Shown one piece after another: positions 9,968 to 60,874 of a stretch of 64,000 nucleotides of DNA. How positions within the stretch are numbered: the first letter of the stretch is position 1; each line of letters starts with the position of its first letter. Below the pieces are notes generated by a model that had not been told where the DNA came from, did not search any database, and saw only the letters and a program-made list of their open reading frames with translations. Source of the stretch: Hyphomicrobiales bacterium (GTDB lineage Bacteria > Pseudomonadota > Alphaproteobacteria > Rhizobiales > CBDCVD01); contig OZ244974.1 of the NCBI GenBank assembly GCA_965222955.1, forward strand, positions 1,536,226 to 1,600,225, in the 5' to 3' direction. A program made the position numbers and the translations under genes.

Positions 9968-10238
9968 GAGCGTGTCAGGTCTTAATAGAAGCAATTCTGT
10001 TTCTCGATTGGCGAGGCGAACCACGCTCAAGGCGATCGAAGAGCGATGGCGACCCATCTCTCGAGAGCGGCTTGGGCGTGGGCGTCCGCCAATCGGAAAC
10101 CCGAAGGGACGGGCGCTTTTGCACCAATATGAACCTTAAGTCTCTTGAAAATAGCCCCACTATATCCTGCGAGATTTAAGGTTCATCTTGTCGCAAAATC
10201 GCTCCGTCAGAATGGTTCTATTAAGACCTGACACGCTC
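9968..10238 (+). mobile_element. Family A MITE (271 bp), reference copy
   Basis: The TIRs are GAGCGTGTCAGGTCTTAATAGAA and TTCTATTAAGACCTGACACGCTC, flanked by TA on both sides. The interior contains long imperfect hairpins (cgattggcgaggcg...cgtccgccaatcg; atgaaccttaagtctc...gagatttaaggttcat). Confidence 0.85.
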
Positions 10239-26234: not shown

Positions 26235-26505
26235 GAGCGTGTCAGGTCTTAATAGAATCAATTCTGTTTCCCGATTGGCGAGGCGAACCACGCCCAAGGC
26301 GATCGAAGAGCGATGTTTATCCATCTCTCGAGAGCGGCTTGGGCGTGGACGTCCGCCAATCGGAAACCCGAAGGGACGGGCGCTTTTGCACCAATATGGA
26401 CCTTAAGTCTCTTGAAAATAGTCCCACTATATCCTGCGAGACTTAAGGCCCATCTTGTCACAAAATCGCTCCGTCAGAATGGTTCTATTAAGACCTGACA
26501 CGCTC
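26235..26505 (+). mobile_element. Family A MITE (copy 4)
   Basis: It is 271 bp with both TIRs intact. Its right end supplies the last codons and the stop of metZ. Confidence 0.85.
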
Positions 26506-27681
26506 TAGAGCCGTCGAGAGATCGTCGCACAGATCGTCCACATGCTCCAGGCCGACCGAAAGGCGTACCATGGCGTCGGTAATGCCCTGTTCGGCGCGCT
26601 GTTGCGGGCCAAGCCGCTGGTGGGTTGTCGTCGCGGGATGGGTGACAAGGCTTTTCGCATCGCCAAGATTATTGGAAATACGGACAATCTCCAGGGCATT
26701 GAGAAAACGAAAACATGCCGCGCGATCGCCCTTGACATCGAATGTCACCAGGGTTCCGCCGTGGTGCATTTGCCTGGCGACGATATTGCTCTGGGGATGG
26801 TCCGCGCGGGTAGGGTACCAGACCCGGCGCACCGCTTCATGCGCGGCGAGAAAATCCGCCAGCCTGGACGCGGTGCGCTCCTGGCGGGCGACACGCACCG
26901 CCAGCGTCTCAAGACCCTTTAGCATCACCCATGCATTGAAGGGGCTCATGCAGGGGCCCGTCTGGCGCAGAAAATCATGGACATATTCATCGATATACGC
27001 CTTGCTCGCCAACAGAACCCCTCCCAGACAACGTCCCTGTCCGTCGATATGTTTGGTCGTCGAGTAGATGACCACATCGGCGCCAAGGGCCAGGGGCTGC
27101 TGTCCCAGGGGAGTGGCGAAGACGTTATCGACAATCAGCACCGCGCCATGTGCCCGGGCGATCTGCGCCACGGCGGCGATATCGATCACATCAAGACGCG
27201 GATTGGTCGGCGATTCGAGAAAACAAACGCGGGTCTGCGGTCGCATGGCCGCCTCCCAGGCGCCCGGATCGCATCCGTCGATAAGCGTGTAGTCGATACC
27301 GAAACGCGGCGCCAGGTCCTCAATGATGTAGCGGCACGAGGCAAACAGCGCCCGCGGCGCAACGATGTGATCGCCGGCGCTGGCGCGCGAAAGGATGGCG
27401 GCAGTGACCGCTGCCATGCCCGAGGCGGTCGCGCGTGCGTCCTCAGCCCCTTCCAGGGCGGCCATGCGCTGCTCGAACATCGCGACGGTTGGATTGGAGA
27501 AACGCGAATAGATAAAGCCGTCGCTCTCGCCCTTAAAGCGCGCCTCGGCCTGTTCCGCCGTCTCATACACAAAGCCCTGGGTCAGGAACAGGCTTTCGCT
27601 GTTTTCGTTGAATGCACTGCGCAGCACCCCTGCATGAACGAGCGTCGTATCCGCATGCCAGTCTGTCTTTGTCTTGACCAT
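26488..27681 (-). CDS. metZ: O-succinylhomoserine sulfhydrylase (Cys/Met PLP family)
   Basis: I trimmed the start to MVKTKTDWHADTTLVHAGVLRSAFNENSESLFLTQGFVY...FIYSRFSNPTV. The C-terminus ...STALERVRS* reads into MITE A4. Confidence 0.8.
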   Translation of the reverse strand: MVKTKTDWHADTTLVHAGVLRSAFNENSESLFLTQGFVYETAEQAEARFKGESDGFIYSRFSNPTVAMFEQRMAALEGAEDARATASGMAAVTAAILSRASAGDHIVAPRALFASCRYIIEDLAPRFGIDYTLIDGCDPGAWEAAMRPQTRVCFLESPTNPRLDVIDIAAVAQIARAHGAVLIVDNVFATPLGQQPLALGADVVIYSTTKHIDGQGRCLGGVLLASKAYIDEYVHDFLRQTGPCMSPFNAWVMLKGLETLAVRVARQERTASRLADFLAAHEAVRRVWYPTRADHPQSNIVARQMHHGGTLVTFDVKGDRAACFRFLNALEIVRISNNLGDAKSLVTHPATTTHQRLGPQQRAEQGITDAMVRLSVGLEHVDDLCDDLSTALERVRS

Positions 27682-27700
27682 TGTTGCTTTCCCGGCCAGT

Positions 27701-27765
27701 TGTGATCTTTCTGCAGGTTGTTCTCGAAAAACCCATCGGGTGCCGCTGGCCATTCATCTGATCAT
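27701..27765. repeat. Family C half-element, 19 nt upstream of the metZ start
   Basis: The sequence is tgtgatctttctgcaggttgttctcgaaaaacccatcgggtgccgctggccattcatctgatcat. It is cut off by MITE A5 at a TA. Confidence 0.6.
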
Positions 27766-27767
27766 TA

Positions 27768-27940
27768 GAGCGTGTCAGGTCTTAATAGAAGCAATTTTCG
27801 TTTCCCGATTGGCGAGGCGACACCGAAGCTCAAGGCGATCGAAGAGCGATGGCGACCCATCTCTCGAGAGCGGCCTGGGTGTGGGTATCGCCTCGCCAAT
27901 CGGGAAACGAAAATTGCTTCACTTAAAAACTGAAAGGCTC
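27768..27940. mobile_element. Family A short variant (173 bp, symmetric arms, variant right end)
   Basis: The ends are gagcgtgtcaggtcttaatagaagcaattttcgtttcccgattggcgaggcg... and ...cgcctcgccaatcgggaaacgaaaattgcttcacttaaaaactgaaaggctc. Confidence 0.75.
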
Positions 27941-28158
27941 TAGCAAGTTGTTTTACGTGGCTGCAAGCCGGCCGGCTCAAATGACCACAAGGGGCGCCAT
28001 ACGCCAATAGTTACAGCATCGGAGTTGTGAGTTTATATAATCGCGGTGTTGGCGTCAATCGCCAGATCGTTTAAGCAGATACGGTCGCCTGCGCAGTCAG
28101 ATCGACCGCCGGGTGCCCTGGCGACAGAAAACGCCCCAGATACGGAACAGGTACAACG

Positions 28159-37511: not shown

Positions 37512-37538
37512 CAACAAAAAGGGCTCCGAAGAGCCCTT
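37512..37538 (-). terminator. Rho-independent terminator of ssrA
   Basis: The minus strand reads aaagggctc-ttcg-gagcccttt followed by TTGTTG. A T-run is present only on the minus strand. Confidence 0.65.
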
Positions 37539-37544
37539 TAAGGG

Positions 37545-37935
37545 AGTGTTCTGTTGCCAGGTTCTCCATGACCCCGCCCCATCCTTGCAGGGATGGGGGC
37601 TAAAGTTCGAGGCGTCGCGCCTTAAGCGGCGAGACGGACCTCTGCGTAGTTGTCATTTGCAACTATCAAAACGGCCCGATAACGGTGGATACCATACCGA
37701 ACGAAAACGCGTTCTTTACACCTTCGTCGATCCTGTTTCGCCCCCATCACAGACGGGCCTTGTGGCGTGCTGCGCTGCATTGTGCTACAAACCTGTCAGG
37801 TACAGATTTGCGATAAAGCGCAACACGAACCCCGCCGACACAACCAGGGCCGGTCTGTGGTGGAGGCGCCGGGTACCGCCCCCGGGTCCGAACAGCTTAT
37901 TGCAACGGTCATTTATCGTCATAGCCGGCAAGGCC
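37545..37935 (-). ncRNA. ssrA: Two-piece (circularly permuted) tmRNA
   Basis: All elements are on the minus strand. The acceptor piece ends ...ccgggggcggtacccggCGCCTCCACCA, with its 3' end at ~37858. The coding piece starts GGGGGCGAAACAGGATCGACG at ~37744, which allows a G3:U70 pair with the acceptor strand. The tag ORF GCA AAT GAC AAC TAC GCA GAG GTC CGT CTC GCC GCT TAA encodes ANDNYAEVRLAA* (37622-37660). The outer ends are approximate. Confidence 0.88.
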
Positions 37936-38024
37936 GGCACGTGACTATAACATAGTCACGCCCCTTACGCCAGACAATAGGTGATATCGGGACTGACCAG
38001 GAGAGTTTTGCTTTTCTTTGACTA

Positions 38025-38297
38025 GAGCGTGTCAGGTCTTAATAGAATCATTCTGACGGAGCGATTTTGCGACAAGATGAGCCTTAAGTCTCACAGGATA
38101 TAGTGGGGCTATTTTCAAGAGACTTAAGGTTCATCTTGGTGCAAAAGCGCCCGTCCCTTCGGGTTTGCCGATTGGCGGACGCCCACGCCCAAGCCGCTCT
38201 CGAGAGATGGGTCGCCATCGCTCTTCGATCGCCTTGGGCGTGGTTCGCCTCGCCAATCGAGAAACGAAAATTGCTTCTATTAAGACCTGACACGCTC
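38025..38297 (-). mobile_element. Family A MITE (copy 6, inverted orientation)
   Basis: The ends are gagcgtgtcaggtcttaatagaatcattctgacggagcg... and ...ttgcttctattaagacctgacacgctc, flanked by TA/TA. Confidence 0.85.
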
Positions 38298-41974: not shown

Positions 41975-43519
41975 ATGGATACAATTCTGATTGTTGATTT
42001 CGGCTCCCAGGTAACGCAGCTTATCGCCCGCCGGGTGCGCGAGGCGGGGGTGTACTGCGAAATCCATCCCGTTCAAAAGGCCCGGGCGGCGTTTGCGGCT
42101 TTACAGCCAAAGGGGCTAATTCTCTCGGGCAGTCCGGCCAGCGTTGTCGATGGGCAGAGCCCGCGCGTCCCCGCCGTGTTTTTCGAATCGGGTCTGCCGG
42201 TCCTTGGCATCTGCTACGGGGAGCAATTGTTGTGCGCGCAGTTGGGCGGCACGGTTGCCGCCGGCGGACAGCGCGAATTCGGCCGCGCCGAAGTGGAAGT
42301 GATCGCTCCCTGTCGACTGTTTGCAGGGGTATGGGAGCCAGGGGGGCGGTATCCGGTATGGATGAGCCATGGCGACGAGATCACGGCGCTTGGCCCCGGC
42401 TTCAGCGCGGTTGCGACGTCTGCCGAGGCGCCTTTTGCCGCCATCGCCGACGAGACGCGGCGCTATTACGGAGTTCAGTTTCATCCAGAGGTCGTACATA
42501 CGCCGGACGGGGCGCGGTTGTTGGCCAACTTCGTGGGCCATATCGCCGGCTGTGCCGGCGACTGGACCATGGCTGCGTATCGCGCCGAGGCGGTGCAGCG
42601 TATTCGCGCGCAGGTGGGTGCGGGGCGGGTGATTTGCGGGCTGTCGGGGGGCGTTGATTCGGCGGTTGCGGCGCTTTTGCTACACGAAGCGATCGGTGAC
42701 CGGCTTCACTGTATTCTCGTTGATCACGGCCTGATGCGCGCGCGCGAGGCGCAGGATGTGGCGGAGTTGTTTCGTCATCACTATCGTATTCCCCTTGACG
42801 TGGTTGATGCCTCGCAGCGATTTTTGCAGGCGCTCGCGGGCGTTACCGATCCTGAGGCCAAGCGCAAGATAATCGGCGGATTGTTTGTCGAAGTATTCGA
42901 GGCACAGGCGCAGGCCTGTGAGGACGCGGATTTTTTGGCGCAGGGCACCTTATACCCGGATGTAATCGAGAGTGTCTCGTATACCGGCGGGCCCAGCGTT
43001 ACCATAAAGTCACACCACAATGTGGGGGGCTTGCCGGATCGCATGAAGCTGCAGCTTGTGGAGCCGTTGCGCGAGTTGTTCAAGGACGAGGTTCGCGCCC
43101 TTGGCCGCGAACTCGGTCTTGAGCGGGCGTTTCTGGATCGCCATCCGTTTCCCGGTCCCGGCCTGGCCATTCGCTGCCCTGGCGCAGTGACGGCGGAGAA
43201 ACTCGCTATTTTGCGCCAGGCGGATGACATCTATCTTGACGAGATCCGCAAAAGTGGTCTGTATGATGCCATTTGGCAGGCATTTGCCGTGCTGCTTCCG
43301 GTGCGCAGTGTTGGCGTGATGGGGGATGCGCGCACCTATGACTATGTGTGTGCCTTGCGCGCGGTAACCGCAACGGATGGTATGACGGCCGATTTTTATC
43401 CCTTTGAGGCGGACTTTCTGGCGCGCACGGCAACAAGAATTGTTAACGAGGTGGCGGGCATTAATCGCGTTGTTTATGATATTACCGCCAAGCCGCCTGG
43501 CACCATTGAGTGGGAGTGA
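41975..43519 (+). CDS. guaA: GMP synthase (glutamine-hydrolysing)
   Basis: It has a GATase domain (…LGICYGEQL…) and an ATP-PPase domain (…[10 protein letters not shown]…), and ends …KPPGTIEWE. Confidence 0.95.
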
Positions 43520-43651
43520 TCGGGGGCGTGGGTTTGCGTTTGTCATGACAACGGGGACACTCGGCTTGCGCCGTGGTTTCCCTACCGATTTCCCTATGGT
43601 ATCGTACCACGGGCGTAAGGTATTGAAAAAAATAAAGTATCCCGTTTTGTA

Positions 43652-43957
43652 TCAAAGCAGAACCAGTTGTTCTGTGCCTGTTTTTTCATGTTTTTTTCGT
43701 TTTCCGACGAGAATCACCATGCGCGCATATTGCTTGTCCGTGATCTGGAATACACGAACGCCACCCTCCTCAGGCACATTACCCCTTAGACGCTCAATAT
43801 GTTTGTCCACAGCCGCCTGACCGCGGCAAATGCGCGTATAGACAGAGAATTGCAGCATATCATACCCGTCTTTTTTCAGAAAGTTGCGGAATTGTGTCGC
43901 GGCACGGCGCTCGGCCTTACTGCCAACGGGCAGATCAAAGATAACAAACAGATACAT
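43652..43957 (-). CDS. cas2: CRISPR-associated endoribonuclease Cas2 (type II)
   Basis: The 101-aa protein reads MYLFVIFDLPVGSKAERRAATQFRNFLKKDGYDMLQFSVYTRIC..., a typical Cas2 ferredoxin-fold N-terminus. Its frame is intact. Confidence 0.85.
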   Translation of the reverse strand: MYLFVIFDLPVGSKAERRAATQFRNFLKKDGYDMLQFSVYTRICRGQAAVDKHIERLRGNVPEEGGVRVFQITDKQYARMVILVGKRKKHEKTGTEQLVLL

Positions 43958-43961
43958 ATAA

Positions 43962-44084
43962 TACTAACGGTCATAAAGAATGACCGTTATCGTTCAAACG
44001 CCACTAAGGCTTACGCGCCATAAGGCGCGGCGGCCGGTCGGCCTTGCCAACGGCTTTATGAGTCAACCACAAGAGCCGTTGGTA
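43962..44084. mobile_element. Family E MITE (123 bp) between the cas1 stop and cas2 start
   Basis: The ends are tactaacggtcataaagaatgaccgtta... and ...ccaacggctttatgagtcaaccacaagagccgttggta. It is flanked by TAA/TAA and starts 4 nt from the cas2 ATG. Confidence 0.8.
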
Positions 44085-44486
44085 TAACGCACCCTTTCGC
44101 CCGTCATGCTACCATGCCTGCGGGAAAAGCAGTTGCCCGCCTCTCTGCTGTTTTACGGCGCGGCGCAAACTGTCGGCGGTTCTCTCGCTCGCATTTAACA
44201 GGGAAAGCTGCTCTCGCTCCAACACGACATCTCTGAAAAGAACACCCGCCATTGCCCGGCGATCATCCTGCACAAGGGCATCGCCTTGCGCGGTACGGTC
44301 CTTGAGATATTCGATTGCATGCCAGTCCACCACCGCCCGATAGGGTTCAATTAAATCATCAACCAGATTGAAGGCGTTCAGATGCCCGTCGTGATGAAGA
44401 CCGACGCAAGGTAAAAAGCCGCATCCGACGACAGCCCGGGCAAGGGCCGCCCGGATACAGGCATACCCATAGTTTAGAGCGTGTCA

Positions 44487-44609
44487 TACTAACGGTCATA
44501 AAGAATGACCGTTATCGTTCAAACGCCACTAAGGCTTACGCGCCATAAGGCGCGGCGGCCAGTCGGCCTTGCCAACGGCTTAATGAGTCAACCATAAGAG
44601 CCGTTGGTA
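44487..44609. mobile_element. Family E MITE nested in the TIR of A7
   Basis: The junctions read gtgTCA|tactaacgg...ccgttggta|TCAggtc, so the 3-bp TCA is duplicated. It is near-identical to the copy at 43962-44084. Confidence 0.85.
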
Positions 44610-44664
44610 TCAGGTCTTAATAGAACCATTCTGACGGAGCGCTTTTGCGACAAGATGAACCTTA

Positions 44665-44765
44665 TACCAAGGGACTTTGCGTGTGACTCCTAACGCAGAT
44701 TAAAACCGTTGTCTTATCAGCACGATACACAAGTCAGCATGTACAAAGCGCCAATACCGCTGGTA
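44665..44765. mobile_element. Family B MITE nested in A7
   Basis: The junctions read aaccTTA|taccaaggg...ccgctggta|TTAagtctc, so the 3-bp TTA is duplicated relative to uninterrupted A copies. Confidence 0.85.
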
Positions 44766-45492
44766 TTAAGTCTCGCAGGATATAGTGGGGCTATTTTCAA
44801 GAGACTTAAGGTTCATCTTGGTGCAAAAGCGCCCGTCCCTTCGGGTTTCCGATTGGCGGACGCCCACGCCCAGGCCGCTCTCGAGAGATGGGTCGCCATC
44901 GCTCTTCGATCGCCTTGGGCGTGGTTCGCCTCGCCAATCGAGAAACAGAATTGCTTCTATTAAGACCTGACACGCTCTAGAAGCGCATTGCGCAGATCCC
45001 CGTCATCGGAACGTTGGAAACCGTCAAAAATCCGACTCCAATAGTAGCGCGCCGCCCGTGCCTCGACATTTTTGGGATCCCCCGATTGCACCCGCGAGGC
45101 CATGGCCGATAATACCGTCTCATCCCCGTGCTGCATTAAATGAAGATTTTCTGCCTGATTGCGGATTTTGGCTTTAACGATGTTTTTCCAGCAACGCTTT
45201 TTGAAAGGCTTGCTCAAAGCCAGTTGCTGGCGCGCCACTTCCGCCTGTGCATGATAGGTATGAAAGGAAAGGGCCAGCCCGCACGGATGGTGACGCTGGT
45301 CGGAAAAGACAATAGGCGTGCCGGCCTCCATACAGGCGGCAATCAGCCGCGCCGAGAGCGTGGCCTTGTTCGTATCAAGGATGATCCAGGCCGCATCTTC
45401 CAGGGGAAAGAACAAGGGCTCGGCTGCTGCATCCCCTTCAAGGTCGCAAACCCTGATACGGCCCTTGTCCAGCGACAAGGACGCCGCCCGGC

Positions 45493-48213
45493 TTATGTGC
45501 AGACCACGCCATGCCATGTACGCTTTTCCGATTTGATTTCACTTTTGCGACCAAGGCGGTCAACCTGAAATTTGCTGAACGAAAGAAGTGTCCGGCAACC
45601 GATACCACGGATCTGCCGTTGCCGGCTGACCTCCTCCGAGAGGGTAATGCTGGCGGTGGAACGGTCGACGCCGCGATAATAGCCCTGAATGATCTCGCCG
45701 TCTCTCTTCGCAACTTCCACCCAGGAAAACGGATAAAGGCTGAACCTGAATGAATACGTCTCGTTCATCTCAGGCCATTCTTTTTCTGTTTTCCCGGCTG
45801 TTGTCGCCTTGTTGGGCGGTTTGGGCCATTGCGCCCGATCGGCAATCTGATGAACATAGATCGGGACGATGTAGAACTTTCCGCTTTTTTCAAAAACATC
45901 AAGGCGAACGATGTTGCCGTTGTCCACATGGCCATTATTGACCTCAAAACCGGAGCGCTCGGTGGTTGGATTTTTTTCCGAGCGCACTGTCACTTTACGG
46001 ATCAAATGGCCGTTATTGCGCCGGGGCAGCTTGTCAGCCGGCGCTCCGGCGTCGAGCCAGTCGGACACTGCCCTGTAGACATCCTTATTGCGATCAGGAT
46101 CCTTTAACCTTTCAGGAGCGGCCCTGGTAATTTTTTCGATCGATTTACGCTCATAGATAATGCGCTTGCCATTCTCGATACGAGACTTTCTGATTGTAGC
46201 CTCGTGTCCTGCGCCGCGCCCGCGCCGGTTTTCACTACGTGCAACCGGTGCGGCGTCGCGGGCGGCAATCACATCTTCGGTAAAGCGCTCCCAGGGCTTG
46301 TCGACCTTGAGTTTTTTTATCGATTGCAGGCCTTTTTCCTCGCGCTCCTGAATGGCTTCGGTCAATTGTCGCAGTTGGCTTTCCGTGCAGACGGCCACGA
46401 TAATTGCATCGACCGCGTGATGGCGGTCATCTTCGATGCGTTTTTTCTTACCATCCTTGTCAGGCAGATATTTGAGCCGCTCAAGTCCCCATTTCTGCCT
46501 GAGTATTGCGATGATCTGGCCGGAACGGGCCCATATGCGCTTGCGCCGCCCGCCTTTCGCTTCTTCGGGCGTGTATATGCGCTCGATTTCCGTATGCGCC
46601 ACCCGTGCGGCGTAACGCATATCGTTCAAATTGCGTGCACTAAAGTTCTTTTTGCGATCGCTGAAATCCTTTATCGTTAAATTGCGGATTTTGAAGCCTT
46701 TTATCTTCTTGTTCTTGTGCATGTTCTTAACCCGCTGCTCAAACATATGCCATCGCTCGCGATTGTGGCCAAGCCATTCAAATGGCGTTTGGTCTTTCTT
46801 GTCGCGATTCTCCTTAACCCGGGCCAGGGCCTTGTTGTGCCAGGAATTGTCATAAGAACGGGAGAGGGGAAGAATATGGTCGATTTCTACCGCGTGTTCG
46901 CCGTCACACAGTTCATTGACGTCAATACACGTCGGCGGATGAGAGTACATACAATATTTATCCTGTTCTTTCCAAAGTTCGTAGCGCATTAGTTCTTGAT
47001 CCAAGCAATGTTCTTTATCGGTTAACTTGCAAAAATTCTTTCGTGCCTCGCGCCGGGCTTTTGTTCTCTTTTCGATACCCTTTCTAATTTCATCACGCGT
47101 TTTGGCGCCTTTGCCAACGTCACGGCCCGGTTCCAAATAAACCGCACCCGGCCGCTCACCCAAATGGTGTATCAGTGCCTTGACTTGTTTTAAGGTCTCC
47201 AGCACGGCGCGTTTGGCGACCGGATTGCTGATATTGGCAAGTTTGGCCTCATTTTGCCGAGTATGATCATAGCCGGCCTGTTTGCAGGCCTTGTCATAGG
47301 TCTTGCCCGCCACCAGACCGGGAAGAATATTGCGTGCCGCTTTTGTCGAAATATGTCCGGCCTTGGAAAATTTGGCAAACGCGCCTGTTTCAACACCCTC
47401 CATGAGTGCTGCCAACACCGCCGGCTCAAGTTCAAGGGTTTCAAGGCCCTGGCGGATACGTTCGATATCCTCGCGAAAGGTCAGCACGTGGGCAATCCGG
47501 TCAAGCTGCGCAGGGGTCTGTACTAGATGGTTCCAGGCGGCCTCACCGATCACCTTATAAAGCGTCGCAGAGCCAAAGGCGCTACCCTTGGAGGCGCGTG
47601 CCAAATCCTCGCCCGTGCTGTCATCACTTACACCAGCAAAGCTGGTATCCTTTGGCAACTTGCATAGCGAAATCAGTTTTTCCCGGGTGATCGATTTTGC
47701 ACCTTTGCCAAAGCCGGTGATCGCCATGGCCAACTCGTCGGGCGTCAAGCGCCGGCCCGAATAGGAGTCATCAACTATCCTGATATTGTTGAGTTTTGAT
47801 AGAAAACGGAACCGCTCAAAAGAATAGGCAAGGCTGCTTGCGCGTTTTTCTTCCGGCTCAAAGGGGCAATTGCCAAGCAGTATTTCCGAATCCTGCAAGG
47901 GTAATTGATCAAAGGCAAAACGGGCGTATTCCTCCTCCATCTCCCGCTCGGCATATTCTGATCCCAGGGCGCGCTGGCGCTTAAACAGTATTTTGACTTC
48001 GCTTTCATGCAAGCACCGAAAAAACGTATGAGAGTAATCCCCATGGCGATTGCGTTTTTTCCCGGCAAATTCCGGATCCCTGGCAAACATCTCGCCAACA
48101 GTGATGTATCTGGCCGCTTTCTCTTTGATCGACGCTGCGCCTTGCAGAACTTTTTTCTTTTCCGATGGCGCGTTGGAGGATTTGTCGGATCCTGTCGGGG
48201 ATACCTTTTCGAA
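45493..48213 (-). pseudogene. cas9: cas9 (type II-C), 5'-truncated; lacks RuvC-I and the bridge helix
   Basis: The open frame is 906 codons, with the first ATG at 48090 (865 aa). It aligns by eye to Neisseria-type Cas9 from ~residue 140 onward. Matching segments are GDYSHTF, RuvC-II (VYLEPGRDVGKG), HNH (VEIDHILPLSRSYDNSWHNKAL), RuvC-III (DDRHHAVDAIIVA) and the PI region (VRLDVFEKSGKFYIVPIYVHQIA). An in-frame TAA at 48214-48216 leaves only 109 nt before the next gene, so no room remains for the N-terminus. Confidence 0.88.
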
Positions 48214-48325
48214 TTAATACCGATTCAATCTGACACGCTCCAGCGCCTGGCCGGGTTCGGGTTTCGCTTTCCGGTCTAACTTGAGGCGGGCGGATTATCC
48301 ATTGTCCATGCGCCGGCCCTGGCGC

Positions 48326-49270
48326 TCACGGTCGCGTTCCAGGCGCAAATGCCCGGCCTTCCCCAGCCTGTTGATCGATTTCCATTTGCCCTGTCAACCA
48401 TGCCCGAAAGGCGTTTGCCGGCGCGTAATCACTCGCCTCGGCCGGGATCATCAGGTAGTAGGCGGATCGGGTGGGAAGTGGCTTGTCGAAGAGAACGACA
48501 AGTTCACCACGCTCAATCTCCCTGGCGATCAGAAAATTCGGCAGCAGCGCAATGCCAATACCGGCGGCGGCGGCCTGGGCTGCGGTGGAAAACTGCTCGA
48601 ATAACAGCCCCGGTCTTTCGGCCGCGCAGGCAAGATGGGCCGCAAACCAGGCGCGCCAGCTTTGCGGGCGACTGGCAAGGTGGAGGAGTGGCAGTTCGGC
48701 AAGATCCTCCAGGCGTTCGATTCTATGGCGCGCGATAAACGCCGGCGACGCAACGGGTACAGATTCCTCGCGCATCAGAAAGGTGGCTTCGGCTTGCGGC
48801 CAGTCGGGCCGTCCAAAGTGAATCGCCCCATGAACGCCTTCGCTGCTCAAATCAAAGGGCGATAGCCTGGTGACGAAGTGGACGGTGATCTCCGGGTTTT
48901 CCTCAAGAAAGGACGGAAAGCGTGGCATCAGCCAACGGGTGCCGAAGGTGGGCAGGATGGCGATATTGAGCTGCCCGGCCCGCGGGTTCATTCTGATGGC
49001 AAGGGATGCTGCCTGAATGCGCGATAGCGCCGGCTGAATTTCCCGGACATAGGCGTGGCCGGCTTCCGTTAAGGTGATTTTCCTGTTTGCCCGGTGAAAC
49101 AGGGCAACCCCCAACTGCTCCTCCAGCGCCCGCACCTGGCGGCTGATTGCCCCTTGCGTAAGGCTCAGCGCACGGGCTGCTGCGGTAAAGCTGCCGGTTC
49201 TTGCCGATACATCGAACGCGATCAACATACTGGTGCTTGGCAGAAACCGTCTCTGATAAGGTTCATCCAT
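48326..49270 (-). CDS. LysR-family transcriptional regulator
   Basis: It has an N-terminal HTH (LIAFDVSARTGSFTAAARALSLTQGAISRQVRALEEQLGVALFHR). It is divergent from the KamA-like gene. Confidence 0.85.
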   Translation of the reverse strand: MDEPYQRRFLPSTSMLIAFDVSARTGSFTAAARALSLTQGAISRQVRALEEQLGVALFHRANRKITLTEAGHAYVREIQPALSRIQAASLAIRMNPRAGQLNIAILPTFGTRWLMPRFPSFLEENPEITVHFVTRLSPFDLSSEGVHGAIHFGRPDWPQAEATFLMREESVPVASPAFIARHRIERLEDLAELPLLHLASRPQSWRAWFAAHLACAAERPGLLFEQFSTAAQAAAAGIGIALLPNFLIAREIERGELVVLFDKPLPTRSAYYLMIPAEASDYAPANAFRAWLTGQMEIDQQAGEGRAFAPGTRP

Positions 49271-50959: not shown

Positions 50960-51011
50960 TTGAATGTGAAAAAGTCCCCCGGCTTCGCCTCGGTCCACTT
51001 TTTCCCAATAA
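50960..51011. repeat. Family F palindromic element
   Basis: The sequence is ttgaatgtgaaaaagtcccccggcttcgcctcggtccactttttcccaataa. Further copies lie at 55362-55413 and 55986-56036, and one is split around A3 at 23345/23739. Confidence 0.6.
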
Positions 51012-51210
51012 TACCAGCGGTATTGGCGTTTTGTACGCGCTGACTTGTGTGTCGTGCTGACAAGACAACGGTTTTAATCTGCGCCGGGAGCCAAACGCAA
51101 GTCCCTGTATACCAGCGGTATTGGCGTTTTGTACGCGCTGACTTGTGTGTCGTGCTGACAAGACAACGGTTGCAAACCAGGTCAGGAGTCAAACGCAAAG
51201 CCCCTTGGTA
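51012..51210. mobile_element. Two head-to-tail family B MITEs
   Basis: The units are 51012-51109 and 51110-51210. The junction reads ...gtccctgta|taccagcgg... Confidence 0.8.
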
Positions 51211-54826: not shown

Positions 54827-55320
54827 CCAGGGGACTTGCGTTTGTTTCCTGACCTGGTTTACAACCGTTGTCTTATCAGCACGACACACAAGTCAGCGCG
54901 TACAACAGCCGATACCGCTGGTATACAGGGGCGTTGCGTTTGACTCCTGGGCCGGTTTAAAACCGTTGCCTTATCAGCACGACACACAAGTCAGCGCGTA
55001 CAAAACGCCGATACCGCTGGTATACAGGGGCGTTGCGTTTGACTCCTGGGCCGGTTTAAAACCGTTGCCTTATCAGCACGACACACAAGTCAGCGCGTAC
55101 AAAACGCCAGTACCGCTGGTATACAAGGGGCGTTGCGTTTGACTCCTGAACTGGTTTACAACCGTTGTCTTATCAGCACGACACACAAGTCAGCGCGTAC
55201 AAAACGCCAATACCGCTGGTATACAAGGGACTTGCGTTTGACTCCTGACCCGGTTTACAACCGTTGTCTTATCAGCACGACACACAAGTCAGCGCGTACA
55301 AAACGCCAATGCCGCTGGTA
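54827..55320. repeat. Head-to-tail array of five family B MITEs (period 99-100 bp)
   Basis: The unit junctions ...ccgctggta|tacaRgggg... sit at 54921, 55020, 55119 and 55219. The array ends with gctggta at 55320, about 180 bp before tRNA-Lys. Confidence 0.85.
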
Positions 55321-56815: not shown

Positions 56816-59800
56816 TTACCCTGGGGGGTCACCGCGCAAAGCCTCGCGCACCAGATCGGGACGATAGAGCGTATCGTGGAAATTGTCTATGGACAGGACT
56901 TCCAGGCCACGCACGACGTTGAGGTGTTTGGCGGCCTCCGGGCTTGAGGCATTGAAAAACCCTTCCGGGGTTATCACAAGCCAGGTACCATCTTTAAAGG
57001 CGATAAAGCGGGCCAGTTCCTTACCCGTCGCCACATCCCACAGGCGCGTCGTATCATCACCAGAGCCGGTGAGAACGGTGCGTCCGTCGGGGGAAAAGGC
57101 AATGCTCCTCACGTTTACGGAATGCCCCTCAAAGCGCTGGATTTCCTTACCCGTAGCCGCGTCCCACAGCCGGGCGGTGTCGTCCCCGGACCCGGTGAGA
57201 ACGGTGCCCCCGTCGGGGGAAAAGGCAACGCTGTTCGGGTTTCCGGAATGCCCTTCAAAGCGCCGGATCTCCTTACCCGTAGCCGCGTCCCACAGCCGGG
57301 CGGTGTCGTTCCAAGAGCCGGTGAGCATGGTGCGCCCGTCGGGGGAAAAGGCAACGCTGAACACAGCACCGGCATGCCCTACAAAGCGCCGGATCTCCTT
57401 ACCGGTGGCCGCGTCCCACAGCCGGGCGGTCTCGTCCTCGGCCCCGGTGAGAACGGTGCGGCCGTCGGGGGAAAAGGCAACGCTGGTCACATCGCGGGAA
57501 TGCCCTTCAAAGCGCCGGATCTCCTTGCCGGTGGTCGCGTCCCACAGCCGGGCGATGTGGTCCCAAGAGCCGGTGAGAACGGTGCGTCCGTCGGGGGAAA
57601 AGGCAACGCTGGTCACATAACCGGAATGCCCTTCAAAGCGCCTCAGTTCCTTACCCGTGACCGCGTCCCACAGCCGGGTGGTGTCGTCTACCGAGCCGGT
57701 GAGAACGGTGCCCCCGTCGGGGGAAAAGGCAACGCTCCGCACAGTATCGGCATGCCCTTGAAAGCGCCGAATCTCCTCACCGGTGGCCGCATCCCACAGC
57801 CAGGCGGTGTTGTCTACCGAGCCGGTGAGAACGGTGCGGCCGTCGGGGGAAAAGGCAACGCTGAACACAGCACCAGCATGCCCTTCAAAGCGCCGGATCT
57901 CCTTACCGGTGGCCGCGTCCCACAGCCGGGCGATGTTGTCAAACGAGCCGGTGAGAACGGTGCGGCCGTCGGGGGAAAAGGCAGCACTGGACGCAGGACG
58001 GGAATGCCCTTCAAAGCGCCGGATCTGCTTACCCGTGGCCGCGTCCCACAGCCGGGCGGTGTCGTCCCAAGAGCCGGTGAGAACGGTGCGGCCGTCGGGG
58101 GAAAAGGCAACGCTGGTCACGTCATAGGCATGCCCTTCAAAGCGCCGGATTTCCTTACCGGTGGCCGCGTCCCACAAACGGGCGGTGTTGTCCCAAGCGC
58201 CGGTGAGAACGGTGCGCCCGTCGGGGGAAAAGGCAACGCTGGTCACGTCATAGGCATGCCCTTCAAAGCGCCGGATTTCCTTACCGGTGGCCGCGTCCCA
58301 CAAACGGGCGGTGTTGTCCCAAGCGCCGGTGAGAACGGTGCGCCCGTCGGGGGAAAAGGCAACGCTGGACACAACATGGGAATGCCCTACAAAGCGCCGG
58401 ATCTCCTTACCGGTGGCCGCGTCCCACAGCCGGGCGGTGTTGTCTACCGAGCCGGTGAGAACGGTGCGCCCGTCGGGGGAAAAGGCAACGCTGGTCACAT
58501 CGCGGGAATGCCCTTCAAAGCGCCGGATCTCTTCACCGGTGGCCACGTCCCACAGCCGGGCGGTGCTGTCCCGGGATCCGGTGAGGACGGTGCCCCCGTC
58601 GGGGGAAAAGGCAACACTGGACACATAATCGGCATGCCCTTCAAAGCGCCGGATCTCCTTACCGGTAGCCGCGTCCCACAGCTGGGCGGTGTTGTCCCAA
58701 GAGCCGGTGAGAACGGTGCGCCCGTCGGGGGAAAAGGCAACGCTCCACACACCTTCGGCATGCCCTTCAAAGCGCCGGATCTCCTTACCCGTGGCCGCAT
58801 CCCACAGCCGCGCGGTATTGTCCATAGAGTTGGTAAAAACGGTGCGCCCGTCGGGGGAAAAGGCAACACTGGACACATAATCGGCATGCCCTTCAAAGCG
58901 CCGGATCTCCTTACCCGTGGCCGCGTCCCACAAACGGGCGGTCTTGTCCATAGAGCCGGTGAGAACGGTGCCCCCTTCGGGGGAAAAGGCAACACTGTAC
59001 ACCCCATCGGCATGCTCCACAAAGCGATCGGCATGCCCCACAAAGCGCTGGATCTCCTTACCCGTAGCCGCGTCCCACAGCCGGGCGGTGTTGTCCCGGG
59101 ACCCGGTGAGAACGGTGCCCCCGTCGGGGGAAAAGGCAACGCTCCAAACATTATCGGCATGCCCTTCAAAGCGCCGGATCTCCTTACCCGTGGCCGCGTC
59201 CCACAAACGGGCGGTCTTGTCCATAGAGCCGGTGAGAACGGTGCCCCCTTCGGGGGAAAAGGCAACACTGTACACCCCATCGGCATGCTCCACAAAGCGA
59301 TCGGCATGCCCCACAAAGCGCTGGATCTCCTTACCCGTAGCCGCGTCCCACAGCCGGGCGGTGTTGTCCCGGGACCCGGTGAGAACGGTGCCCCCGTCGG
59401 GGGAAAAGGCAACGCTCCAAACATTATCGGCATGCCCTTCAAAGCGCCGGATCTCCTTACCCGTGGCCGCGTCCCACAAACGGGCGGTCTTGTCCATAGA
59501 GCCGGTGAGAACGGTGCCCCCTTCGGGGGAAAAGGCAACACTGTACACCCCATCGGCATGCTCCACAAAGCGATCGGCATGCCCCACAAAGCGCTGGATC
59601 TCCTTACCCGTAGCCGCGTCCCACAGCCGGGCGGTGTTGTCCCGGGACCCGGTGAGAACGGTGCCCCCGTCGGGGGAAAAGGCAACGCTCCAAACATTAT
59701 CGGCATGCCCTTCAAAGCGCCGGATCTCCTTACCCGTGGCCGCGTCCCACAAACGGGCGGTCTTGTCCATAGAGCCGGTGAGAACGGTGCCCCCTTCGGG

Positions 59801-60874
59801 GGAAAAGGCAACACTGTACACCCCATCGGCATGCTCCACAAAGCGATCGGCATGCCCCACAAAGCGCTGGATCTCCTTACCCGTAGCCGCGTCCCACAGC
59901 CGGGCGGTGTTGTCCCGGGACCCGGTGAGAACGGTGCCCCCGTCGGGGGAAAAGGCAACGCTCCAAACATTATCGGCATGCCCTTCAAAGCGCCGGATCT
60001 CCTTACCCGTGGCCGCGTCCCACAAACGGGCGGTCTTGTCCATAGAGCCGGTGAGAACGGTGCCCCCTTCGGGGGAAAAGGCAACACTGTACACCCCATC
60101 GGCATGCTCCACAAAGCGATCGGCATGCCCCACAAAGCGCTGGATCTCCTTACCCGTAGCCGCGTCCCACAGCCGGGCGGTGTTGTCCCGGGACCCGGTG
60201 AGAACGGTGCCCCCGTCGGGGGAAAAGGCAACGCTCCAAACATTATCGGCATGCCCTTCAAAGCGCCGGATCTCCTTACCCGTGGCCGCGTCCCACAAAC
60301 GGGCGGTCTTGTCCATAGAGCCGGTGAGAACGGTGCCCCCTTCGGGGGAAAAGGCAACACTGTACACCCCATCGGCATGCTCCACAAAGCGATCGGCATG
60401 CCCCACAAAGCGCTGGATCTCCTTACCCGTAGCCGCGTCCCACAGCCGGGCGGTGTTGTCCCGGGACCCGGTGAGAACGGTGCCCCCGTCGGGGGAAAAG
60501 GCAACGCTGGTCACCCAAAAGGCATGCCCCAATTGGGCAAAGACGCGAATGTCGTCCGCGGCCGCTTGTGCAATGAGGGCATTGCCGGTGCCATTTGAGC
60601 CACCGGATGCCGCTATCAAATATTTATTATTCACCCAGGCTTCCTCGCCTGAGGCAAGACGCACCCGGCTCCAGTCCCCGTCGCGGGCCAACTCCTCCAC
60701 CACGGCGCCCGGGGGCAGCACATCGACTTTATCGTACTCCGGTCCCGGCCCTTGCCGCACGTTCAACTCTGTATCCGGCCTGACCTTGTATGTCGCGGCA
60801 AAAGCGGCCTCGCCCCACAACAATAGAGCGGCAACAAAACAAACAATAAAACCAATAACACGCCGTTCACGCAT
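56816..60874 (-). CDS. Secreted SH3-domain + 27x WD40-repeat protein (1352 aa)
   Basis: It has a signal-like N-terminus MRERRVIGFIVCFVAALLLWGEAAFAA. A bacterial SH3-like segment follows (YKVRPDTELNVRQGPGPEYDKVDVLPPGAVVEELARDGDWSRVRL). After that come 27 units of the form GH..V.SVAFSPDG.TVLTGS.D.TARLWDAATGKEIRRFE. The large antisense ORFs are shadows. Confidence 0.85.
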   Translation of the reverse strand: MRERRVIGFIVCFVAALLLWGEAAFAATYKVRPDTELNVRQGPGPEYDKVDVLPPGAVVEELARDGDWSRVRLASGEEAWVNNKYLIAASGGSNGTGNALIAQAAADDIRVFAQLGHAFWVTSVAFSPDGGTVLTGSRDNTARLWDAATGKEIQRFVGHADRFVEHADGVYSVAFSPEGGTVLTGSMDKTARLWDAATGKEIRRFEGHADNVWSVAFSPDGGTVLTGSRDNTARLWDAATGKEIQRFVGHADRFVEHADGVYSVAFSPEGGTVLTGSMDKTARLWDAATGKEIRRFEGHADNVWSVAFSPDGGTVLTGSRDNTARLWDAATGKEIQRFVGHADRFVEHADGVYSVAFSPEGGTVLTGSMDKTARLWDAATGKEIRRFEGHADNVWSVAFSPDGGTVLTGSRDNTARLWDAATGKEIQRFVGHADRFVEHADGVYSVAFSPEGGTVLTGSMDKTARLWDAATGKEIRRFEGHADNVWSVAFSPDGGTVLTGSRDNTARLWDAATGKEIQRFVGHADRFVEHADGVYSVAFSPEGGTVLTGSMDKTARLWDAATGKEIRRFEGHADNVWSVAFSPDGGTVLTGSRDNTARLWDAATGKEIQRFVGHADRFVEHADGVYSVAFSPEGGTVLTGSMDKTARLWDAATGKEIRRFEGHADYVSSVAFSPDGRTVFTNSMDNTARLWDAATGKEIRRFEGHAEGVWSVAFSPDGRTVLTGSWDNTAQLWDAATGKEIRRFEGHADYVSSVAFSPDGGTVLTGSRDSTARLWDVATGEEIRRFEGHSRDVTSVAFSPDGRTVLTGSVDNTARLWDAATGKEIRRFVGHSHVVSSVAFSPDGRTVLTGAWDNTARLWDAATGKEIRRFEGHAYDVTSVAFSPDGRTVLTGAWDNTARLWDAATGKEIRRFEGHAYDVTSVAFSPDGRTVLTGSWDDTARLWDAATGKQIRRFEGHSRPASSAAFSPDGRTVLTGSFDNIARLWDAATGKEIRRFEGHAGAVFSVAFSPDGRTVLTGSVDNTAWLWDAATGEEIRRFQGHADTVRSVAFSPDGGTVLTGSVDDTTRLWDAVTGKELRRFEGHSGYVTSVAFSPDGRTVLTGSWDHIARLWDATTGKEIRRFEGHSRDVTSVAFSPDGRTVLTGAEDETARLWDAATGKEIRRFVGHAGAVFSVAFSPDGRTMLTGSWNDTARLWDAATGKEIRRFEGHSGNPNSVAFSPDGGTVLTGSGDDTARLWDAATGKEIQRFEGHSVNVRSIAFSPDGRTVLTGSGDDTTRLWDVATGKELARFIAFKDGTWLVITPEGFFNASSPEAAKHLNVVRGLEVLSIDNFHDTLYRPDLVREALRGDPPG
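58883..60513. repeat. Six tandem 273-bp units inside the WD40 gene, identical by eye
   Basis: The string gcccttcaaagcgccggatctccttacccgtggccgcgtcccacaaacgg recurs at 58888 and 59161, and the pattern continues every 273 bp. Each unit encodes two WD repeats (42 + 49 aa). An additional 126-bp duplication lies at ~58131-58382. Confidence 0.85.

Follow-up and report, generated by a model that had tools for sequence, protein, structure and literature searches.

Type II-C CRISPR-Cas systems, as represented by the Neisseria meningitidis Cas9 type (6JDQ, 6JE3), have the gene order cas9-cas1-cas2, carry neither csn2 nor cas4 and use repeats of 36 nt. The inactivation of such genes by mobile DNA is an established process: 163 natural insertions of insertion sequences (ISs) in cas genes, spread over 57 genera, have been described, and miniature transposable elements with inverted repeats (MITEs) within cas genes follow a similar pattern (Nat Commun 2023;14:4366, PMC10359306). 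Here we analysed 64 kb of DNA from a Hyphomicrobiales bacterium (assembly GCA_965222955.1, contig OZ244974.1, positions 1,536,226 to 1,600,225 of the forward strand; 64,000 nt, hereafter the window), in which positions 43520-48325 had been predicted, from the letters and their open reading frames (ORFs), to hold a type II-C operon in an early stage of decay. Our analysis makes it very probable that this locus is a horizontally acquired II-C island immediately downstream of guaA, whose inactivation, brought about by six or more separate events, is complete.

In gene order, in the absence of csn2 and cas4, in its 36-nt repeat and in the length of Cas9 in its intact relatives (around 1050 aa), the locus resembles the known II-C systems. 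In contrast to intact members, it lacks the RuvC-I motif, the bridge helix, the anti-repeat of the trans-activating CRISPR RNA (tracrRNA) and all spacers, and its cas1 gene is interrupted. The insertion in cas1 and an element wedged into the ribosome-binding site of cas2 represent the same phenomenon as the inactivations reported before (PMC10359306). Unlike those cases, the locus shows a triple-nested insertion, i.e. three successive transpositions at one site, and it has also suffered a deletion and the loss of its spacers, with no MITE involvement seen in either. Since IS and MITE inactivation of cas genes has already been published, the locus is an unusually legible new instance of a known process and not a new kind of system.

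Classification and intact relatives

The cas9-cas1-cas2 block lies on the minus strand within 43520-48325, bounded by guaA and lysR, and profile hidden Markov models confirmed all three products, i.e. Cas9 (Pfam HNH_4, RuvC_III and Cas9_a; NCBIfam TIGR01865 with 472 bits at a cut-off of 100, matching only model positions 139-1070), a type II Cas1 (TIGR03639, the type II model, 256 bits once the insertion is removed) and Cas2 (Pfam CRISPR_Cas2 and NCBIfam TIGR01573). Between cas9 and guaA there are only cas1, cas2, MITE elements, a stretch of 46 nt and one repeat. The adaptation module consists of cas1 and cas2, with neither csn2 (II-A) nor cas4 (II-B) between cas9 and guaA; the other ORFs were not searched directly for csn2 or cas4. 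The gene order and the content of this interval, together with the presence of the same three genes in the relatives, therefore define a type II-C layout, in agreement with the original prediction. Of the features expected of a II-C system, the window holds the cas9 signature gene and an adaptation module restricted to cas1 and cas2, and it lacks a repeat-spacer array, a tracrRNA with an anti-repeat and a complete catalytic and guide-binding core of Cas9. The locus is type II-C by its architecture and its proteins and, since the functional features fail, a degenerate member.

The closest relatives of the window's Cas9 are 56-61 % identical to it and 1045-1076 aa long. For comparison we used six of their loci (L001, L002, L004, L007, L008 and L009), with a Cas9 identity of 58-61 % in five and 56 % in the sixth. 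All six carry the genes in the order cas9 (1046-1076 aa), cas1 (299-306 aa) and cas2 (101-109 aa), and in each of them cas1 overlaps the end of cas9. The cas9-cas1 overlap of 25 nt found in the window is the same in L001, L002 and L004. Five of the six loci have an array of 36-nt repeats starting about 45 nt past cas2: 27, 13 and 10 repeats were counted in L001, L002 and L004, respectively, and repeat-core matches numbered at least 8 and at least 21 in two more (L008 and L009), while in L007 the repeat-core pattern gave no array match. A tracrRNA profile built from the RNAs of three relatives (anti-repeat GGGAAATCGGTNGGGAAGCCACGGT plus tail) matched all six loci with E values of 1e-16 to 1e-30, which puts the tracrRNA on the strand opposite to cas9 and 70-300 nt upstream of that gene, i.e. 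at 9833-9927 in L001, 9697-9791 in L002, 1543-1640 in L004, 2835-2929 in L007, 2692-2786 in L008 and 252-360 in L009 (all minus strand, divergent from cas9). In these loci the anti-repeat heads a strongly conserved RNA of around 90 nt, the end of which is formed by a hairpin with a T run. The position of the tracrRNA upstream of cas9 in divergent orientation and the 25-nt overlap of cas9 and cas1 are two features in which this clade differs from the II-C comparator.

Two further observations concern the relatives themselves. The core of the clade tracrRNA, an alphaproteobacterial II-C RNA, is near-invariant from the anti-repeat to the terminal hairpin. In addition, the stretches 141-703 and 777-1082 of L004, just upstream of its II-C locus, hold another array with a different repeat (GTTGCGGTTGGCCCACGTTTTCTAATCAGCTATAAC) as well as an additional cas2.

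A deletion joining tracrRNA and cas9

Lesions were found in every module of the locus, supporting the earlier view that it is non-functional, and the DNA shows directly where these lesions begin and end, which target sites were duplicated and that the remaining parts are homologous to intact loci. The largest concerns cas9, of which the remnant (45493-48189, minus strand) is homologous to the region from residue ~152 to the end of relatives of around 1046 aa. Its longest ORF, 45493-48090, begins at the first start codon (ATG at 48090) and would encode 865 aa. When relatives of 1045-1047 aa were used as tblastn queries, the match started at their residue 148-150 and ran as one high-scoring segment pair over 903 positions with no change of frame, and nucleotide comparison placed the breakpoint at about codon 151-152 (window position ~48189). 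The loss of N-terminal codons, put at about 140 in the original prediction, was thus borne out and amounts to around 151. Solved II-C Cas9 chains likewise align to the remnant only from their residue ~133 on.

The remnant keeps the HNH, RuvC-II/III, partial REC and protospacer adjacent motif (PAM)-interacting regions and has lost RuvC-I, the arginine-rich bridge helix and the HRGY motif. Among 60 homologs, 28 columns conserved to at least 97 % fall into the deleted part, including the GLDIGxxSxGWA motif with the catalytic Asp (D25, P0002 numbering) and the arginine cluster. Survival of the N-terminus in another frame or elsewhere in the window was ruled out, as tblastn found nothing.

Directly next to the breakpoint, at 48194-48209 on the plus strand, we found a 3' remnant of the tracrRNA, GTCGGGGATACCTTTT, which in the consensus fold makes up the T run and, of the terminal hairpin, the 3' half, and which is divergent from cas9 as in the relatives. 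The nhmmer match spans 48190-48209, of which 13 nt are exact, or 16 nt with the T run. The 13-mer, GTCGGGGATACCT, is invariant at the tracrRNA 3' end of L001, L002, L004 and L008, with close variants in L007 and L009, and it is the single best local match when the region upstream of the window's cas9 is compared with each of L001, L002 and L004. It sits 4 nt from the first homologous cas9 codon, in the correct orientation. No tracrRNA anti-repeat was found in the 64 kb, where the tracrRNA profile matches only the single repeat described below and the 16-nt 3' stub; the previous statement that no candidate tracrRNA was present therefore holds for the anti-repeat and had overlooked the remnant.

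Because the tracrRNA stub abuts the cas9 breakpoint, a single deletion of around 0.6-0.75 kb accounts for both losses. Measured on L001, L004 and L002, its size is 603, 659 and 745 bp, respectively, and it took the first ~78 nt of the tracrRNA, anti-repeat included, the intergenic region between tracrRNA and cas9, and cas9 codons 1 to ~151.

There is no MITE sequence at the deletion junction. Within 48080-48330 the only match to other repeats of the window is an isolated 11-mer, GAGCGTGTCAG (48230-48240, minus strand), which is identical to the terminal inverted repeat of the MITE termed element A below and has neither an element body nor a TA flank. We considered this 11-mer as the mark of an IS-mediated deletion and rejected it, as it lies 20 nt beyond the tracrRNA stub, on the far side from cas9, and is bodiless. 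Likewise, the island is not a composite transposon with GAGCGTGTCAG-type termini, since the guaA side shows only a weak and directly oriented resemblance. A plasmid search with the stub gave no match.

Insertions in cas1 and in front of cas2

The cas1 gene was confirmed to be split by a nested MITE insertion of exactly 501 bp (44477-44977), as first described, with element A as the outer element carrying elements B and C. The 5' fragment (44978-45517, minus strand) comprises codons 1-180 and matches Pfam Cas_Cas1, the 185-aa ORF 44960-45517 corresponding to the N-terminal half of this family, and the 3' fragment (44109-44476, minus strand) comprises codons 181-301 and the stop codon. A TA duplication flanks the insertion at 44475-6 and 44978-9. 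If the insertion and one TA are removed in silico, a 301-aa Cas1 results, in which the sequence RNALL|NYGYA across the insertion site is intact and which is colinear with the relatives at an identity of 61-64 %.

Element A is 271 nt long, the same length as the copy at 9968-10238, and has a terminal inverted repeat of around 30 nt (GAGCGTGTCAGGTCTTAATAGAA) that starts with GAGCGTGTCAG. Within it lie element C (123 nt, 44487-44609), which entered one of the terminal repeats of A with duplication of TGA, and element B (101 nt, 44665-44765), with duplication of TTA. The lengths sum exactly, i.e. 271 for A, 104 for B with its duplication and 126 for C with its duplication give 501. Since B occupies a different position in another copy of A, it was inserted separately and not carried in as part of a composite element.

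The cas2 gene (43652-43957, minus strand) is an intact, full-length ORF of 101 aa with 73-82 % identity to the Cas2 proteins of the relatives and, in line with the original prediction, has a MITE 4 nt ahead of its start codon. This is copy 1 of element C (43959-44087; 123-nt core at 43962-44084, TTA target duplication), which lies between the conserved Shine-Dalgarno sequence (AAAGGG) and the ATG. At the cas1-cas2 junction of L001 and L004, CAAAGGG is followed by 8 nt and the ATG; in the window, CGAAAGGGTGCGTTA is followed by element C and then TTATATG. The element also brings a 10-bp hairpin directly before the ATG. The translation signal of cas2 has probably been lost.

A single CRISPR repeat

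The gap between cas2 and guaA measures 132 bp and had been described as free of any repeat-spacer array. This is correct as far as spacers are concerned; one complete repeat of 36 nt is, however, present at 43570-43605 (minus strand; ACGATACCATAGGGAAATCGGTAGGGAAACCACGGC in the orientation of the cas genes, GCCGTGGTTTCCCTACCGATTTCCCTATGGTATCGT in the CRISPR RNA sense, i.e. on the plus strand). It is separated from the cas2 stop codon by a stretch of 46 nt (43606-43651, minus strand), which equals in length the stretch preceding the first L001 repeat and has a CAAYACCTT motif in common with it. Compared with the array repeats of relatives, the repeat has one mismatch to L005, two to L001 and five each to L002 and L004, and the window contains no further copy even if up to 10 mismatches in 33 positions are allowed. 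A scan of genome contigs with the repeat retrieved only L005, a 2.3-kb contig of a Rhizobiaceae metagenome-assembled genome that ends in three repeats and shows no cas-gene similarity. A degenerate second repeat beyond the single one was ruled out, as inspection by eye showed agreement at no more than about 10 of 36 positions.

The most likely explanation for the single repeat is a collapse of the array through recombination between repeats. The 3' end of the repeat (TGGTATCGT in the single repeat, TGGTATGGT in the clade) may resemble an extended -10 element, as in the repeat-embedded promoters of Neisseria. In a weaker variant of the doubtful reading, discussed below, that the loss was selected, the single repeat might still drive an antisense transcript across cas2.

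Age and origin of the locus

The surviving cas coding sequence of 3,903 nt, in three reading frames, contains no internal stop codon and no frameshift. Of 116 Cas9 columns that are conserved to at least 97 %, the remnant keeps 114, and one of the two deviations is located at the junction; in functional relatives the median number of deviating columns is 1 and the largest is 6. As 3.96 % of the substitutions that are possible in these 3,903 nt lead to a stop codon, the neutral divergence since the loss of constraint is estimated to be below about 0.3-0.9 % (95 % bound; assumed indel-to-substitution ratio of 0.05-0.2), or below 2 % if based on stop codons alone. The surviving frames are thus free of point-mutational erosion, which supports an inactivation that would be recent on the scale of sequence evolution, as had been proposed from the open frames and the typical Cas sequences. 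The term 'early stage' of decay fits insofar as sequence erosion is concerned; functionally it does not, since all four modules are out of action by at least six events.

At 52.7 %, the GC content of the island is lower than that of the remaining window (58.7 %) and of the guaB-rsmB-guaA genes (62.7 %). One of its flanks is guaA (GMP synthase; 41975-43519, plus strand; Pfam GMP_synt_C and GATase), the native flank and last gene of this conserved block, with the genes for IMPDH and RsmB upstream; the opposite flank is a LysR-family regulator gene (48326-49270, minus strand; Pfam HTH_1 and LysR_substrate). The same guaB-rsmB-guaA block is found in the closest genome by GuaA (L006, 78 % identity), a long-read metagenome contig from ENA, where it is followed by an AraC-type gene, with no CRISPR and no lysR after guaA. 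The low GC content of the island and the absence of CRISPR after guaA in the nearest genome fit a horizontal acquisition. The GuaA of the window itself reaches at most 78 % identity to anything known and around 75 % to Chelativorans and Nitratireductor, which suggests that the organism could belong to an isolated Hyphomicrobiales-like lineage.

Proposed course of inactivation and alternative explanations

Taken together, the locus would originally have consisted of a divergent tracrRNA, cas9, cas1, cas2 and an array. A deletion of around 0.6-0.75 kb, which starts midway in the terminal hairpin of the tracrRNA and extends to codon ~151 of cas9, removed the anti-repeat, the expected cas9 promoter region, the RuvC-I catalytic motif and the bridge helix. 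Element A (271 nt, TA duplicated) entered cas1 at codon 180/181, followed by element B (101 nt, TTA duplicated) and also element C (123 nt, TGA duplicated), both into A, and a second copy of C inserted ahead of cas2, parting its Shine-Dalgarno sequence from its ATG. The array consists of one spacerless repeat, most likely as a result of recombination between repeats. Such a locus is predicted to yield neither a guide RNA nor a Cas9 able to bind one, nor any Cas1, and its intact cas2 ORF to be left with no translation signal. We infer the order of these events from the lesions, as we do the loss of expression, the recency and the preference for a collapsed over a never-grown array.

Several points weigh against this scenario. 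A collapsed array and an array that never gained spacers cannot be told apart. The bound on the age of the inactivation hangs on the assumed indel-to-substitution ratio. Outside the 64 kb read here, the 3.39-Mb genome may in principle contain an orphan array or a further copy of the tracrRNA or cas9 gene. Moreover, the collections searched held nothing closer than 78 % identity for guaA or 61 % for Cas9, and no intact ortholog at this site: Cas9 peptide patterns matched no relative among the genome contigs, and the metagenome contigs gave no match for Cas9 or for the unique guaA-repeat flank, hence no sequence of the same species.

The alternative that survives best, albeit as an unlikely one, is that the lineage never had a spacer-bearing array, the island having arrived naive or already defective with a single repeat. 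There is exactly one repeat, at the canonical cas2-proximal place and with no degenerate second repeat downstream, as this explanation would predict, and there is no relative at the site for comparison. On the other hand, the related loci with arrays all have many repeats (10, 13 and 27 counted, at least 8 and at least 21 core matches), and the perfect conservation of the repeat and the conserved cas genes argue for a system that worked until recently.

A complete inactivation by the events described above might also have been selected and not neutral, which we consider doubtful. In a burst of MITEs or ISs, spacers matching host elements or the chromosome would have been autotoxic, and the locus would then represent an escape from autoimmunity. 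If this were true, the array would have been purged to one repeat and the effector and tracrRNA deleted together, with the MITEs landing thereafter in genes that were already dead.

That the truncated Cas9, the intact Cas2 or both were retained for a non-immune function, which would explain the open frames, appears highly improbable. The frame is indeed open over 900 homologous cas9 codons with nearly all conserved residues kept, and the cas2 ORF is intact; open frames are, however, expected by chance if the decay is young. In addition, the window's Cas9 sequence in its 865-aa form is a singleton among 5.8 billion protein clusters, its next relative (61 % identical) being full length. There is no promoter-like site upstream of the cas9 remnant on its strand, and its first start codon has no suitably spaced Shine-Dalgarno sequence. 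The bridge helix and the tracrRNA, both required for guide binding, are lost. As for cas2, its Shine-Dalgarno sequence has been shifted 126 nt away and a hairpin stands ahead of the ATG.

Least credible of all is that part of the lesions arose in the assembly of a circular contig from a metagenome, for example by collapse of the array or by a chimeric join at the 5' end of cas9. The nearest relative genome is a long-read metagenome contig from ENA, and the source may be one as well. However, all four MITE insertions have a proper target-site duplication and lengths that sum exactly, and the deletion joins two features that also adjoin each other in intact loci and are still correctly oriented, as fits a real deletion and not a chimera. 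Moreover, assemblers normally do not shrink an array to one repeat with intact unique flanks.

Mobile elements and other features of the window

Element A has the properties of a MITE, i.e. inverted repeats, target duplication, small size, no ORF and multiple copies. At least eight copies, with no coding capacity, are present in the 64 kb; the element duplicates TA within a YTAR-like target, and its terminus gave 22 matches (at most one mismatch) compared with 0.9 expected. Elements B and C also qualify as MITEs, with termini of the TACCA.../...TGGTA type and 3-nt TNA duplications (TTA, TGA, TTA). Owing to these duplications and shared termini, B and C were probably moved by a transposase other than that of A. 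Element B is present in at least 12 copies in the window, tandem runs included, whereas element C has only two, both inside the cas locus. As a separate observation, B also occurs as head-to-tail runs of five and two copies with a unit of 98-99 nt (54828-55320 and 51011-51198), which is odd for a MITE-like element.

No autonomous, transposase-bearing partner IS for A, B or C was found in the window. Candidate parents of A are ISs of the IS630/Tc1-like or IS5 (IS427-group) families, from which MITEs that duplicate TA derive. A plasmid search with element A returned only unannotated matches of around 74 % identity on Phyllobacterium and Aminobacter plasmids.

Repeats make up 14.6 % of the window, of which 3.5 kb are a tandem repeat inside one gene, and MITE-like patches cover around 9 %. 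The claim that MITEs saturate the window thus overstates a coverage that is dense rather than saturating. The other MITE patches lie between long ORFs or at ORF margins, and cas1 carries the only clear mid-gene insertion; such an exception would be expected of a gene not under selection. The view of MITEs as the agents that destroyed the locus stands for cas1, which they broke, and for cas2, which was cut from its ribosome-binding site, and is not supported for the main deletion, which has no MITE sequence at its junction, or for the spacer loss, which cannot be attributed to them. Nor are the destroyers simply the families seen throughout the window, given that element C is restricted to the cas locus.

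Some MITE patches lie close to RNA features elsewhere in the window, in which Rfam models detected only a transfer-messenger RNA (tmRNA), two tRNAs and one S-adenosylmethionine (SAM) riboswitch. The SAM_alpha riboswitch aptamer (27922-27998, minus strand) abuts an A-type MITE patch (27696-27954), which separates the aptamer from the start of the downstream ORF 26488-27753 (minus strand); this insertion may uncouple the riboswitch from its gene. The tmRNA gene (37531-37976, minus strand) is of the two-piece (permuted) alphaproteobacterial form and has an A-type MITE directly beside it (38025-38297); this alpha-type tmRNA identifies the source of the window as an alphaproteobacterium. The window also contains an ORF of 1352 aa (56816-60874, minus strand) with 27 WD40 repeats, encoded on around 13 near-identical 273-nt units in tandem (about 90 % matches). 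For a bacterium, such a beta-propeller array is unusually regular and young.

Implications

As the lesions are all delimited to the base pair and their surrounding coding sequence is uneroded, the locus is a clean example of the death of a Cas9 system. For the same reason the ancestral locus can be rebuilt in silico, save for ~600-750 bp. Annotation tools would call an 865-aa 'Cas9' and an 'intact' Cas2 here and would overlook the single repeat. The locus could be used in teaching and to calibrate both pseudogene callers and the annotation of CRISPR loci. Beyond the window, the comparison with the intact loci defines the tracrRNA and the repeat of a little-studied alphaproteobacterial II-C clade with a Cas9 of around 1046 aa.

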